A DNA stretch of 64,000 nucleotides, counting the filler, from Circinaria calcarea (lineage: Eukaryota): the NCBI GenBank assembly GCA_051942165.1. It is 6 parts of 6 records of this genome, joined end to end, with 100 filler letters (N's around TTAATTAATTAA, not from the genome) between each part and the next. Parts side by side here need not be neighbours in the genome. Positions count along the whole stretch, not along the records: positions 21,576 to 32,255 come from JAVECS010000776.1; 5 more parts are not named here. One strand, 5' to 3'. The notes beneath the pieces were generated by a model. That model did not search any database, was not told the DNA's origin, and saw only the letters and a list, made by a program, of their open reading frames with translations. The translations under genes and the position numbers were made by a program. Shown piece after piece: positions 22,300 through 31,369 of the stretch (the first letter of the stretch is position 1; the number at the start of each line of letters is the position of its first letter).

Positions 22300-23553
22300 T
22301 TTCCCATATTACTACTTTCCTTTCGTAATGCGTCTGGTCGGCGATAACCTTAGAGGGAGAGGAGACGGAGGCAATTTGCAAGCCGAGAAGACCCTAGTGG
22401 ATGGCCTTGCCGCCTTGAAAATCTATCATGTCTTCTCGCCGCCTCCTTCCACCTCGGATTCCTCTTTGGTATCCACCGGCTATGAGCGTCTCTCGTTGAT
22501 GCCCGCGGTGCGCGAAGCTCCAACGCTTGTGGGGTATCTTGATCCACGAGGCGCATGGCGTTCAAGTCTTCCTGGAGACGTATCCCCCAGACATATTTTA
22601 TATGTTCCAAGGAGTGCACGATGATCTGTCAAACTATCAGTGGCGTGTCTTGCGGGCACAGATGAACTCACATCATCGCATTTCATGGCAATGATGGTGT
22701 GTCACATGTCGAGATCCTTCCCCTCCCCAGAGGCCTGTGAGCTCTGAGAGAGAATCTAAAGCCGCCGTCACATCATGGTGCTGAAGAAGCTGGCTCAAAT
22801 ACCGTTGCTGGTGTTGAATCAACCGATCTCGCCATCGCTGCTCGGAATACCAGTTTCGCTGAAAGTGGTATTGGCTTATCTTGCGGTATAGATCGCCGTT
22901 GGTTGGCTTCTCATCATTGGCATGTTCCTCTATGAGGGGCGTTCTTAGGCCGCGGTCGATGTTTACTGGAGGCTAAAGTCAGAAACATGAACACACCACG
23001 CAATATCAATCGTACCTGCATACAAAGGTCAACTGTCTACCACTCGTCGCTCGGTAAAAGGACCTCCTTTCGCAGCTTGAATACGGTGTCGTCCGTGTAG
23101 CCAGTCTAAGTGATAGCCGTCCAGGAAGACCAGCTCCGAATATCCGTCCCGCGGCCTCAGCAGTTCCCCCACGGAAATATTGGACAGCTGCACAACGGTA
23201 TCGAGGTCTTGCCGTGCAATAAAGGCCGGAATATGGTTGTGAACGTCAGGCCGACGACAGTCATGTCGGAAAATAGATTTCAGTCTCTCGACATTCATGG
23301 CATCGAGCTTCCTTGGCTCGTTCCATAGGAAATGCAGGTATGTGAGCCGGATGCGAGCAGTTCCTTGCCCATGCCTGAACGGCATATCTCCAAAGTACTC
23401 AGGGTAGGGCACCAGGGCTCCCGAGTGCCAATTGCTCCAATAAGTACCACCTTTCTCACCTCCTGCCACCCCCTATACAGCCCTCTACCGCTGCGCAATC
23501 TTTAGCTGCGATCGTCAGCTTTCTTGCTCTTTTATAACACCGAACCATTCCAT
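22300..23553 (-). pseudogene. DUF3723-family gene (Starship accessory type), frameshifted and 3'-truncated; boundaries approximate
   Basis: GTARIRL..LHF...RKLDAMNVERLKSIF..CRR.DVHNHIPA, LDWLHGRHRIQAA, LRTPLIEEHANDEKPTNGDLYRKISQY, MKCDD, LEHIKYVW...VDQDTPQALELRAP, found in different frames. Confidence 0.82.
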
Positions 23554-25138
23554 ACCTAAGCGAAAGAACCCCTTTTAACATCAACTTTGCAGTATGGTCT
23601 GTGGCCTCAGATCTGCCGACTTACATTGGTCTTAATTAACTAACAATTTCTCCGCAACTAGAATACTCCACAGTCTATGACGCCGTTGGGTGAGGTTGAG
23701 AAGACTTTTCCCCAACGAGGCTCTTTGTGCTTGCAGCGACTTGTTAAGCGTACAACCTTCATTTGCCATCGCTGCAGCCGTCGAAACAACATCAAAGCTC
23801 GTCGCCTACGCTGAGGACAAATGGGATGAACCCTTATGCAACGGCTGCTATGGTGATTTCCTGTGTATATATGAGGAAGAAGGGCAAGCATTAAAAAAAT
23901 TTGTACTGGATTGTGCTTGAGAAACCGTACAGTAACTGATGTCAGCTTGGACGAGATAATAAGACAAGCCATATTTCCTGGACGTCTCAACAATTGTCCA
24001 TTGCCTGCCGCTTGATGCCGAGACACTTAAAGTCTAAATGAGACCCTGGTCTATTGTGAATTATCAGCTCTCATCGGCGTGACCCTGGGCCGTGACCATT
24101 TATTTATTTTTCTATCTATTTTGGTTTACGATTCGGAGCGGAAAATAACAGCGGGGCATACGAGGATGCTCCATGGGGTCCCTGCCGTGAGAATCGTACC
24201 CCAGGTCATCTACATATTTCATGGTGTGTGTGCAATTCGATCTACGGCTTCATGACAATTGAAGTGCATGTATTAAACAATACAAGTCCGGTTCAGTGGC
24301 GGAGTCTGGGTGCTTGTCGTCAAGTGAAGCGCCTATTTGTTCACCTCGAGCCACCTACACAACAATTACTAGGCTGGTCTCTTGGCAGCCTGTGTTGAAG
24401 TCCACAGACGGCCACGACGTCAAGAAGTGCACGTATCTCTGCCTCACCCGTTCGTCCTAGTTTCACCTCGAAGCAATCCCGATTTTTTGCCAATAGCGTC
24501 CACATCTAGATGCGGCGCTTCCGTTTAAGTCTTCATGGAGTTCATGTACCACGGTTCTTTAGCGGAATCGCGTATCAATCGCTTTATCTATGCATTTCTA
24601 CAGGTGTTTAGCATAAAAGGCCACTTTTATAGGCGTATCGATACGCGTAGGTTTACACAGGCTATCGTTACAAAAAAGGTATCTCGCAAGAGTTGAAGGT
24701 GGTCCGCTGATAGTGCTCACCTCATCAGACTCCACGGTGACATACGGCCATCTAGCAACAGGTAAAGCTTTGTTCGTAAGCAGAAAGGCCTCTATAGCTA
24801 ATTTGTGTTTGGCACCGCTGACTCTTAGGGTGACGACTGCCCAGCCACCTTTTTCGTTACTGATGGTTTTGGAGCGGTCGATGACTGCCAGCATAAGGCG
24901 AAGATTGAGGCAAATAGGATCGATTATTCCCTCATTGGAAAATTTACGGAAAATCATGGAAATAAGCACCAATAATCCTCGGTAAGCATCATTATCCATA
25001 ATGCTGACCGAGGTATTCCCAATTAGTTACCACATTAGGGCCCAATAAACAAATTCCACCTGCGCAAGGGCTCTTATAGCTTCCACATCACCCAATTGCG
25101 ATTAGAATACTCAGTATTCAACTTATCATATCTCGAAG

Positions 25139-28527: not shown

Positions 28528-31369
28528 ATGGACGCTCTTTCTGGCTCCCCTCCACAAGCAAGTGGACATAAATGGAGCCGTGCCCCCCCTTCATCATGGC
28601 CTTCCTCATCTTCTCCTCGCCACACAGGTACAGCAGCCTTGCATTGCTCGCTTCGCATACCAAAGTCTATCGTACCGCCAGTCCCAAGTGGAGCCCGCTT
28701 CCCTCAGGCGCCCTCTGTGCCATCATCGCCCTCACTCTGTCCTCGACCGCTGCGCCGTCCGCATCCTCTATTGCAGCAGTGGTACACCGGCAAAGCGGCG
28801 CAGGCACGTCGCAAGAACCTCAAGCGACCGCCCAGTTACTACAAGAACCTCCGCCGAGAACTCCAAACGAAAGGTCGGACTGCCCCGAAGCATTCGGACA
28901 ACACTAAAAGGAGCACCGCATCACTTCTCAAGAAATGGAACAGGTCAGTCACACTAGATTCTCTATCTTGGCCCTCTGTGACGGACCGAGAGGCTGATCC
29001 TGCTGGGCTAGATTTTGCTCCGACATCGATGAATTCCCCGAAAGCTTCCTTCAGACAGCCGTTGCAGAGGATTTCAAGACGTTTCTACGGTGGACCTTAG
29101 ATCGCTACCCGAGAATCCGAGCCAGCGAGAGCCTCAACAATTACTAGCGGGTTTTGAACATGCACATCCTCGATCAAAGCGGTTGCGAGCTGGATGACAG
29201 CATCCGCAGAGACGTGACCAATATAAAAGACCCCGCTGCAAAGAATTAGCCTCGCTAACGCATCCGTCGTCGATAGTACAAGAAAGTCCTTATGGATGAA
29301 TACCAGCTCCGCAGACTCCCAAAGAAGCGACACGTCAGTAGTGTCGATAATCTCTATCACGTCCTCTTCTACCACTGGGTATATGATGATACCGTGTATC
29401 GAGATGAACGACAACGAAATTACGTGGCCACGGGCTACCTTATGGCTTCATATTTTGGTTATCGATCGGTCTCTATATTCGACACGAGGATCAAGTTCGA
29501 GGACGAAGATGACGCTCGGAAGCCCGCCGACCATGCTATTGGCGTATGCCTGACGGAAGATCATAAAGACAACCCGAGGGGCCAAGAGACGCCGCACGAT
29601 CTGGGCTGGGACGAGGAGCAAGCGGCCCTTGTCGATTCCGATTCCGATCCCGATCCCGATAACGATGCCCGCACGTCCTATGACCATGACGGCGACACTA
29701 ATAGCGACAGCGGCACCGACGATGGCGTTAATGCAGGCGTCGATAACACAGGGTCTTTACTTTAGAGACACATCACTTTTATCATTGCCCGCAGCTGCAA
29801 CCCCGGAGAATCTAATCTCCTCTTCGCCAAGGTGACGATCACTCATACGAAAGGAGAAGATAATTGCCCTCGAAAATAGGCCTAACCCTCATTACTCCGA
29901 ATCTCTAACCCTATCGCTGACCCTTCCCGAATAGGAAGACCTTCATCGTCGAACGAGAAGATAACCCTCTCCTCTACCTCCTCGACCACCTCCTCTCCCT
30001 AGCCCTCTCCGATAGCGTATTCGCCGCCGAACCGTTGCGCAACATCAGCAACATTTTCCGAGCCGAAATCCCCTCCGGAAAGAAATCTCTCCAATTAAAG
30101 ATCAAACGCAGCGCCTTAGATACTCCTGTCTTCCGTGAGCCGGGGCGCGCCGCGGATGAATATCGCACGTCCCCCTCGAAGCCATTGCGGTCGAAAACAT
30201 GGCTTCGTTACCTCACCCGACTCGGTCGCAACTCCGGGTTGGAAAAACGCTTGACCCAATATTGTACACGACGGGGCTTAATCAATACTATAAACAGTAA
30301 TTTAGTTCTCCTGCAGAGCCCGTCCAGTATCTATCGTCCCACCGACTCTAATTTCTGTCCACTGCCGCAGACCAAGCACCATCATCGGTGCGGGACTAGA
30401 TTTTCGATCATCAATCGAATACGGTCCGATATTACCTTGACCGGGAAATCTGATTCAACACCATGGCCGCGTTCTTAGGCCGTCCGTCTGATAATGTCGT
30501 CCAAAAGCTAGCCCGGCTGATGACATTAACCGTTAACCTCAACGCCCCTACCAGATTATCCGCGGAGCTATCGAAGAAGCTGGCCAACAACAAACGGATC
30601 GTTCAGCTCCGTCGCAAGAGCAAGGCATTCACCGAGAAACTTAAGCAGAAGTATACGCTCATCCGAAAGGCTCTTCCGGGTGACCCATGGCTCCAAGCCA
30701 AGAATCAGGTAGACGCGGCTTTACACCGGGAACGAAATAACCGGCGAAACCGAATGCTCGAAAAGGCCCGGAAGCGATATTTTTGAAACGCCGACACTAG
30801 TATCCTCGAGGCTCAATTTGTCGATTCGTCTCCTATCGCGTCCGACGAAGGCATCCAGTCTCCGGTAGCCCTCCACTACGATATTCCCGAGCGTAATCAT
30901 CTAGTCCGGTTGACCTGCGAGCCGATTTCCGATTTAACCGATTACGAGAAGCATGTCCGGAGGCTCGCAACCCTGCAAGCCCGGGTCGCATCTTGCGACC
31001 GACAAGAGAGTCGGCACCGCTCCCAGTTACCGTCGAGTCACCCATCGACGGAATTATTATACCCGCTCGAAAAGACCTCGGAGGACCGGAACGATGACCA
31101 GGAAAACGACTTCCCTCTGAAGTGCCGGCCCACCCAATGCATTTTTCTGCTTGGGGGATGAACGCAAATCTCATCATGGCCGAAATTCCGAATACTCTCG
31201 GCCCAACAAGATAATGAATGAGGTGGAGAGACACCTACAGATGTTTACTCCTAACGATCCAATCCCATGTCCGCATCCCAGGTGCAAGGCCAGCAAAATC
31301 GTCCTGCCACATACCATGGCGTTCAAAAACCATACGGCAGAAATACACAAGATCGTACTACGTGCTTAA
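28528..31369 (+). pseudogene. DUF3435 tyrosine recombinase (Starship captain-like), inactivated by transition mutations; start codon uncertain
   Basis: LKKWNR/FC, NNY*RVL, HWVYDD..YRDERQR..., FGYRSVS, LL*RHI, THTKGED, LLSLALSD.VF, TPVFR, RLGRNSG...LTQYCTRRG, VRD*IFDH..TVRYYL, AFLGRP, C-terminal CPHPRC...FKNHTAEIH. At least 5 premature stops plus damaged splice donors. Confidence 0.9.

Follow-up and report, generated by a model that had tools for sequence, protein, structure and literature searches.

An intact gsfI-type halogenase gene stands beside, and not within, a dead Starship-like insertion in an assembly of Circinaria calcarea

The DNA considered here (the window) is a 64,000-nucleotide stretch of the Circinaria calcarea assembly GCA_051942165.1, made up of six contigs of ~10.7 kb (10,689 down to ~10,660 bp) which are joined by N44-TTAATTAATTAA-N44 spacers. 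Since the stretch is a concatenation of separate contigs, adjacency between one contig and the next has no biological meaning. The subject is the single contig JAVECS010000776.1, at positions 21576-32255, the other stretches being unlinked pieces of the same assembly. Genes were detected by Pfam profile scans of stop-to-stop open reading frames (ORFs), and contigs from four public runs were placed on this contig for comparison. These are X5, a rock metagenome (~98% identical to the window and, therefore, not the same individual), X6, a lichen metagenome, X17, a soil metatranscriptome (RNA), and X1, of which the contig is DNA. No evidence is drawn from stretches of the contig that these runs leave uncovered, nor from the small word shares of runs X12-X20. 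What lies at the centre of the contig is a halogenase gene and, to its right, the start of a Starship-like element with its DUF3435 tyrosine recombinase, the captain:

25139 to 27085, plus strand: gsfI-type flavin-dependent halogenase gene, 6 exons, 529 aa, intact
25140 to 27285 (25140-25976 and 26542-27285), plus strand: spliced RNA contigs of X17, in the 99%+ identity class
28423 to 28426, plus strand: TTAC, the four-base core of the insertion target, at which the match to the empty-site contigs ends
28427 to 32255, plus strand: 5' part of a Starship-like element, which runs off the contig
28528 to 31369, plus strand: DUF3435 captain pseudogene, from Pfam and from tblastn of full-length relatives

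An earlier note on this DNA had described an intact six-exon halogenase gene on the plus strand between a broken DUF3723 gene on the minus strand and a captain-like recombinase with at least five stops on the plus strand, with repeat arrays at both contig ends and no core genes, and had inferred that the halogenase arrived as Starship cargo, with the caveat that nested or adjacent elements were likely. The inventory is borne out in each of these respects: profile searches place the flanking ORFs in DUF3435 (PF11917) and DUF3723 (PF12520), and Pfam scans find no housekeeping gene on the contig. The inference about cargo is not sustained for the captain's element, for reasons given below.

The halogenase gene is complete. 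Its exons (25139-25263, 25322-25418, 25496-25535, 25599-26027, 26094-26636 and 26730-27085) are separated by five introns, all GT..AG, and the spliced product of 529 aa has no stop and aligns end to end, without gaps, with full-length relatives. Exon 1 matches FAD_binding_3 and NAD_binding_8, and the exon-5 ORF matches PF04820 (Trp_halogenase) at 25.7 bits, where the curated cut-off is 21; the relatives of the gene carry PF04820, PF01494 and PF13450. In flavin-dependent halogenases, a conserved lysine and a W-x-W-x-(I/L)-P motif have roles in the guidance of hypohalous acid. In this regard, FFKLN at residue 78 and GWVWMLP at residue 234 are common to the window protein, the Aspergillus alliaceus and Penicillium griseofulvum proteins and the characterised GsfI of P. 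aethiopicum. Likewise, GGGPGG at 13 (residues 13-18, the GxGxxG pattern of binding to flavin adenine dinucleotide, FAD) and FIDPFFSSG at 324, of the pattern F-x-D-P-x-F-S-x-G, agree with GsfI in both sequence and position.

A search with exon 5 gave 669 matches among 2332 candidates, of which the best 120 were listed; among these are A. alliaceus and P. canescens (both 96%) and P. griseofulvum (93%), and the identity of the exon to GsfI itself is 92%. Over the spliced protein, the gap-free identities are 93.9% with A. alliaceus (528 aa), 91.0% with P. griseofulvum (523 aa) and 89.8% with GsfI (527 aa), which may be set against the 91.3% that the A. alliaceus protein and GsfI share with one another. 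In a 25-row tree, the window protein falls within a 12-row GsfI clade of support 100/100, nearest to A. alliaceus, and groups with characterised GsfI. Halogenases of the RadH type and other fungal ones fall elsewhere, those of the lichen fungi Trapelia and Gyalolechia in a remote clade. On sequence grounds, then, the gene is the orthologue of GsfI, the griseofulvin halogenase, an enzyme which the available text of PMC9210304 describes as chlorinating griseophenone C during griseofulvin synthesis.

The gene is also transcribed. All three RNA contigs of X17 are in the 99%+ identity class, and they omit exactly the stretches 25264-25321, 25419-25495, 25536-25598 and 26637-26729, each bounded by GT..AG. 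In other words, four of the five predicted introns are spliced as modelled, the fifth being outside the coverage. Spliced contigs cannot stem from contaminating DNA, and it follows that a gene near-identical to that of the window is transcribed and processed in nature.

Evidence for the maintenance of the protein comes from comparison with a second orthologue, at 9074-10968 of an 87 kb metagenome contig, L001, which is 85.7% identical in protein sequence to the window and has all five intron positions in common with it. The ratio of non-synonymous to synonymous substitution rates (dN/dS) between the two is 0.085 (dS 0.86, 522 codons), which points to strong purifying selection. Nucleotide similarity between the two loci (77%) runs from 186 bp upstream of the ATG (24953-25138) to 39 bp before the stop, such that the conserved unit is, essentially, the gene with a short promoter or 5' untranslated stretch. 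The L001 protein groups with Apiospora (support 98/96), and the locus on L001 is probably a gsf-like cluster of a sordariomycete. At 14258-20054, 3.3 kb downstream of its gsfI orthologue, L001 holds a gsfA-like non-reducing polyketide synthase (NR-PKS) of domain order SAT-KS-AT-ACP.

These data bear directly on the explanation that the halogenase is a functionless relic of a lost gsf-like cluster, its frame open merely by chance. Such a relic would fit a contig with no gsf partner and only a scrap of polyketide synthase, where both neighbours of the halogenase are pseudogenes and where the X6 copy has a possible frameshift at 25258. Against it stand 529 open codons with every motif as in GsfI, the dN/dS of 0.085 and the spliced environmental transcripts at 99%+ identity. 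Moreover, the flanking captain has gained five stops over a comparable length. The explanation is, therefore, very improbable.

The right-hand neighbour of the halogenase behaves as a discrete mobile insertion. Contigs of X1, X6 and X17 all depart from the window at 28426 and continue into the same sequence, apart from one single-nucleotide polymorphism, whereas the X5 contig bridges 27990-28941 as the window does and represents a filled site. The window, therefore, carries an insertion which begins at 28427 and which is absent from the site in three data sets. In X1, a 13,256-nt contig follows the window over 23140-28426, from which it differs at 77 letters, and its next 7,989 nt are of unrelated sequence. 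The boundary was delimited on the 5' side, the contig ending 3.8 kb into the element, and the continuation of the empty site, which represents the right flank of the element, has no match in the window at up to three mismatches. The check for empty sites that the earlier note had advised is, thus, answered in favour of a mobile captain segment for this 5' side. An observation on the filled site in X5 is that its copy of the element is longer by 41 letters at 28445|28446, a point 19 nt in from the 5' boundary.

At the empty site, TTAC is followed by seven bases and then A, a pattern with a background in the window of 0.0006 per position. In the available text of PMC10104507 and PMC11162782, TTAC(N7)A was defined by experiment as the target of the Starship Hephaestus, and the Hephaestus family conserves it as the core of its direct repeats. 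The nearest in-frame upstream ATG of the captain (28528) is 101 nt inside the boundary, its homology to full-length captains (28771 to 31366 by tblastn) begins 344 nt inside, and it reads inward. The captain is, accordingly, the first gene at the element's 5' end, as is expected of a Starship. Two further features lie between the halogenase and this boundary:

28285 to 28422, minus strand: C-terminal RNase H fragment, 46 residues (profile positions 107-138 of 141, E 1.6e-5)
27613 to 27696, no strand assigned: (TGY)n microsatellite

The RNase H fragment abuts the insertion site and is probably the remnant of a retroelement in which the Starship-like element landed; the (TGY)n tract, taken on the minus strand, could be the simple-repeat tail of this remnant to its right.

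The captain itself, with two DUF3435 matches (E 4.8e-21 and 3.2e-8), no longer encodes a continuous protein. In-frame stops occur at 29145, 29763, 30397, 30451 and 30784. The donors of two introns, at about 29223 and 29876, read AT where GT is required, and a single inserted C near 31142 shifts the frame. With five stops, two mutated donors and one frameshift, it is dead. Two changes of frame (2>1 and 3>2) were considered as further frameshifts and rejected, as they are canonical introns at 28945-29010 and 30297-30361. Each of the five stops can be traced to one C:G>T:A change, the residues at these points in homologues being W, W, Q, R and R respectively. Heavy repeat-induced point mutation (RIP) was nonetheless rejected as the cause of decay on compositional grounds, neither of the two pseudogenes of the contig being RIP-like by composite index (-0.69 and -0.38).

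A full HMMER scan with the 185-aa core of the captain returned 315 relatives at E <= 0.001. Among the 20 best, the closest named one is from Xanthoria sp. (74% on the core), followed by Pleopsidium flavum (55%) and Lambiella insularis (49%) and then by Aspergillus and Histoplasma proteins (44-50%); in a second set of 10 clusters of these relatives, one has an organism name. A 940-aa protein of the Xanthoria cluster is 48-70% identical across segments. As a separate observation, the captain region 30075-31255 has further copies in X5, at 93-95% identity, a sign that the community or genome sampled there contains several decayed captains.

The position of the boundary changes the answer to the question of cargo. 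The stop codon of the halogenase is 1,341 bp upstream of 28426|28427, on the side from which the element points away, and the flank which holds the halogenase is present in X1, X6 and X17, where the element is absent. That the halogenase is cargo of this Starship, the earlier note's proposal as applied to the captain at hand, is not supported by these facts: the gene is outside the boundary, the captain reads away from it and the locus exists without the element. In other words, the halogenase is a neighbour, part of the host DNA that flanks a later, polymorphic and now dead Starship insertion.

To the left of the halogenase are two further pieces of debris, both outside the captain's element and on the other side of the halogenase from it:

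22353 to 23472, minus strand: DUF3723 (PF12520) pseudogene, 3'-truncated
24625 to 24903, minus strand: decayed NR-PKS SAT-domain fragment, 93 residues (profile positions 141-235 of 239, E 3.7e-9)

Of the 508 positions of its profile, the DUF3723 pseudogene covers 1-65, 84-179 and 181-227, in three pieces and three frames (E 3e-13, 2e-20 and 2e-6). Two of the gaps are GT..AG introns, the first piece contains an in-frame TGA and there is a problem of frame at the end of the second exon; no match occurs beyond profile position 227, a permissive Pfam scan included. A search of the ESM Atlas with a DUF3723 piece gave an uninformative best score of 0.80. The copy in X1 has taken another course of decay: set against the window, it shows an insertion of 214 nt, a deletion of 72 nt and, at 22319-22378, a run of C>T/G>A differences. 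In this last interval, all 16 listed differences between the window and X1 are C>T or G>A, a local RIP-like pattern in a segment of which the RIP indices are, as a whole, negative. The relic is 5 kb outside the captain's element and 1.7 kb upstream of the halogenase. Since it is also present in X1, where the element is missing, it predates the captain insertion and does not belong to the captain's element.

The fragment of the SAT domain (starter-unit:ACP transacylase), 236 bp upstream of the halogenase ATG, scores above the curated cut-off and was overlooked by the earlier note, which had called the halogenase an orphan; the term stands for these 10.7 kb only. Pfam scans of the contig find no KS or AT remains after the fragment, none of 394 candidates is a homologue of it at E <= 0.001, and its match among solved structures, to norsolorinic acid synthase (PksA), is weak (E 0.16). 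Comparison with the gsfA-like synthase of L001 by tblastn and tblastx gave nothing relevant, and the scrap was rejected as a gsfA remnant, being unsupported by any similarity to that synthase. In the available text of PMC9210304, gsf clusters have seven genes, gsfA-F and gsfI, which are conserved together. Neither the 10.7 kb contig nor the other five contigs of the window contain any other gsf-type gene.

The DUF3723 relic raises the possibility of nested elements, in which an older Starship brought both the halogenase and DUF3723 and then decayed, the captain of a second element landing in or beside it. Such a history would be in keeping with the closeness of the relic to the halogenase and its presence in X1, and with the signs, given below, that the halogenase was acquired horizontally. 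It also has parallels, since the available portions of PMC9156397 document cargo that outlasts the decay of its Starship and those of 10.1101/2025.11.25.690456 report Starship-linked horizontal transfer into lichen fungi. The contig, however, contains no boundary, direct repeat or second captain of an older element, and one DUF3723 relic falls short of the at least three conserved-gene matches by which degraded Starships are recognised in PMC9156397, as far as its available text goes. Moreover, the homology to the gsfI locus of L001 extends no further than the limits given above, such that no larger transferred block is visible. We regard an older Starship that carried DUF3723 and the halogenase as unlikely.

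The identity of the host was approached through an ORF for alpha-isopropylmalate synthase (IPMS) on contig 1 of the window. Among its best 120 matches (identities 96% down to 77%), the best named relatives are Lecanoromycetes, with Xylographa bjoerkii at 85%, Hypocenomyce and Loxospora at 83%, and Lobaria and Lambiella at 82%; no Aspergillus or Penicillium IPMS is among them. A halogenase with 94% identity to a protein of Aspergillus does not, therefore, accord with the Lecanoromycete-like housekeeping marker of the assembly. This discordance between gene tree and host marker, a comparison that the earlier note had put forward, makes a horizontal origin plausible and leaves two accounts, in which the gene was transferred horizontally or the contig stems from some other fungus of the sample. 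Of the two, horizontal acquisition of the halogenase by a lichen-forming or lichen-dwelling fungus is the most likely, the direction and vehicle of the transfer being matters that we infer.

Taken together, the contig would consist of three unrelated layers, a history which we consider fairly probable. The first layer would be a working gsfI-type FAD-dependent phenol halogenase, acquired horizontally by a lichen-forming or lichen-dwelling fungus. Having no gsf partners within 10.7 kb, it may chlorinate an aromatic polyketide for which the genes lie in another part of the genome, perhaps of the benzophenone or norlichexanthone type. The second would be the older debris on the left, common to other samples, that is, the DUF3723 pseudogene and the NR-PKS SAT scrap. 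The third would be the later, polymorphic insertion on the right, where the 5' end of a Starship-like element entered after TTAC inside the RNase H remnant and where, after the insertion, the captain would have died by C:G>T:A point mutations, loss of splice donors and a frameshift.

A number of observations weigh against this history. With respect to the transfer, the gene gives no compositional sign of foreign origin, as its GC content at third codon positions (0.564) is within the range of genes on the other contigs (0.47-0.69). In addition, nesting of the gene inside the Aspergillaceae was rejected as a claim, since an Aspergillaceae clade which excludes it is not rejected by the approximately unbiased test (p 0.18), and the pairing with A. 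alliaceus has a support of only 91/87; from these two values, no donor or direction can be named. With respect to the gene, the X6 contig (depth 6) is one base short at 25258, in the C-run of exon 1, a gap that could reflect an assembly error or, else, a broken and frameshifted copy in the sample, and partner genes may lie in the 7,989 nt of X1 past the empty site, leaving 'orphan' unproven. With respect to the insertion, the empty-site evidence amounts to one Logan contig per run and covers the 5' boundary only, and the RNase H fragment, at 25.6 bits, is just under the Pfam cut-off of 25.8. Finally, the membership of this contig in the same genome as the Lecanoromycete-like contigs is not proven: no repeats are common to it and the five remaining contigs, and tetranucleotide correlations are somewhat lower between it and these (0.41-0.71) than among the five (0.56-0.76).

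This last point opens the way to an explanation by mis-binning or co-assembly, in which the contig comes from a fungus of the thallus other than the mycobiont, for example a eurotialean mould, the halogenase is ordinary for its lineage and no transfer between classes took place. Beyond the missing repeats and the lower correlation, the nearest relatives of the halogenase, from a search of which the best 120 of 669 matches were listed, are all Aspergillaceae, and the source appears metagenome-like, with runs from rock, lichen and soil metagenomes matching parts of the window, which is context only. The linked captain speaks otherwise, as it is closest, among the 20 best, to captains of Xanthoria, Pleopsidium and Lambiella (74%, 55% and 49%) and not to those of Aspergillus (42-50%). 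Captains do move between lichen-associated fungi, according to the available text of 10.1101/2025.11.25.690456, and the captain is for this reason only moderate evidence on the host. The linkage of halogenase and captain is found, furthermore, in the independent, non-identical contig of X5, and in an Aspergillaceae genome the gene would be expected inside a gsf cluster, to judge from what is available of PMC9210304, whereas here it stands among debris of transposable elements. Mis-binning is, on this showing, an unlikely account, and the three-layer history is preferred to it.

What remains of interest is the halogenase itself, a GsfI orthologue which is expressed and kept by selection in an assembly of lichen type, with no partner genes in view. 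Lichen polyketides of the benzophenone and xanthone types have a heptaketide origin in common with griseofulvin. According to the available text of PMC6273661, about 72 chlorinated xanthones are known from lichens, and the majority of lichen xanthones come from the benzophenone route that also leads to griseofulvin. Lichen xanthones may, thus, reasonably be proposed as a candidate substrate class, and the gene would offer a concrete candidate enzyme for their chlorination. In the literature searched, no halogenase was found to be tied to chlorinated lichen xanthones, nor was any link found between griseofulvin and Starships or between lichexanthone, griseofulvin, lichens and halogenases, although supplementary tables may list related captains or loci. 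A 94% match across fungal classes would, if real, represent a clean inter-class transfer of a single biosynthetic tailoring gene. It is conceivable, and we put it forward tentatively, that a griseofulvin tailoring gene crossed between the Aspergillaceae and a lichen-forming Lecanoromycete, in one direction or the other, and has been kept as a stand-alone, expressed gene which chlorinates lichen benzophenone or xanthone polyketides; the Starship relics would then mark a landing zone for foreign DNA, with an older Starship as a possible carrier.

The insertion has a significance of its own. It provides, at the level of reads, a TTAC(N7)A Starship insertion with its empty site in a lichen-associated fungus, a group from which Starships were described only in 2025-26. 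It also sounds a note of caution: Starship hallmark genes on either side of a gene do not prove that the gene is cargo, and here the evidence of the boundary reversed that inference.

The remaining features concern the ends of the contig and its companions in the window:

21576 to 22168, no strand assigned: left-end tandem arrays, periods 17-46 nt
31833 to 32100, no strand assigned: right-end AT-rich tandem arrays, periods 17-51 nt

Contigs of the other runs lose their match to the window at about 22277-22283. The right-hand tail, 31370-32255, is the only part of the contig with a RIP-like composition (GC 0.325, composite index +0.33), and within this AT-rich sequence, at 31833-31931, are 18-nt tandem units with CCCTAA/CCCTAGGG-like cores, which recall degenerate telomere repeats. 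When 53 small ORFs of the intergenic stretches were scanned permissively with Pfam, the only matches were the fragments of SAT and RNase H. On another contig, at 16627-21473 on the plus strand, is a Ty3/gypsy retrotransposon with open gag (566 aa) and pol (1100 aa) frames, the latter with protease, reverse transcriptase, RNase H and integrase; it runs into the contig end and looks young or intact. The spacers between the six contigs are of the six-frame-stop type.

Four known systems offer points of comparison. In length (529 aa against 529-534 aa) and in motif strings, the halogenase is like the GsfI orthologues of Penicillium aethiopicum and other Aspergillus and Penicillium species; it is unlike them in that it is not seen beside gsfA-F on its contig and in that its assembly is Lecanoromycete-like and not of the Eurotiales. 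The derelict Starships of Gluck-Thaler et al. 2022 (PMC9156397), as far as the available text describes them, likewise have pseudogenised hallmark genes beside an intact accessory gene, but the intact gene of the window can be shown to lie beyond the one element for which a boundary is placed. Tangerine and the other Starships of lichen fungi, known here from part of 10.1101/2025.11.25.690456, are a recently described set with signals of transfer from other fungi. The available text, in which neither a halogenase nor a biosynthetic cluster is mentioned, offers several parallels, namely a captain within a genome that resembles Lecanoromycetes, DUF3723 in the vicinity and adjacent genes which show signs of having come horizontally from non-lichen fungi. 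In the same text, captains of the Tangerine family mostly have no core-binding domain, while that of the window is homologous to captains of 806-940 aa over ~730 residues; a further difference is that the foreign-looking gene of the window is outside the element and has its affinity with the Aspergillaceae and not with the Chaetothyriales. The Hephaestus family, with its captain HhpA, is similar in having a DUF3435 captain first at the 5' end and reading inward, in its insertion directly after TTAC with an A eight bases further on in the empty site, and in its polymorphic occurrence with a clean empty site. The captain here is dead, unlike that of Hephaestus, and its closest named relatives, among the 20 best, are the captains of lichen fungi; by target site and captain placement, the element is a candidate for the Hephaestus family.

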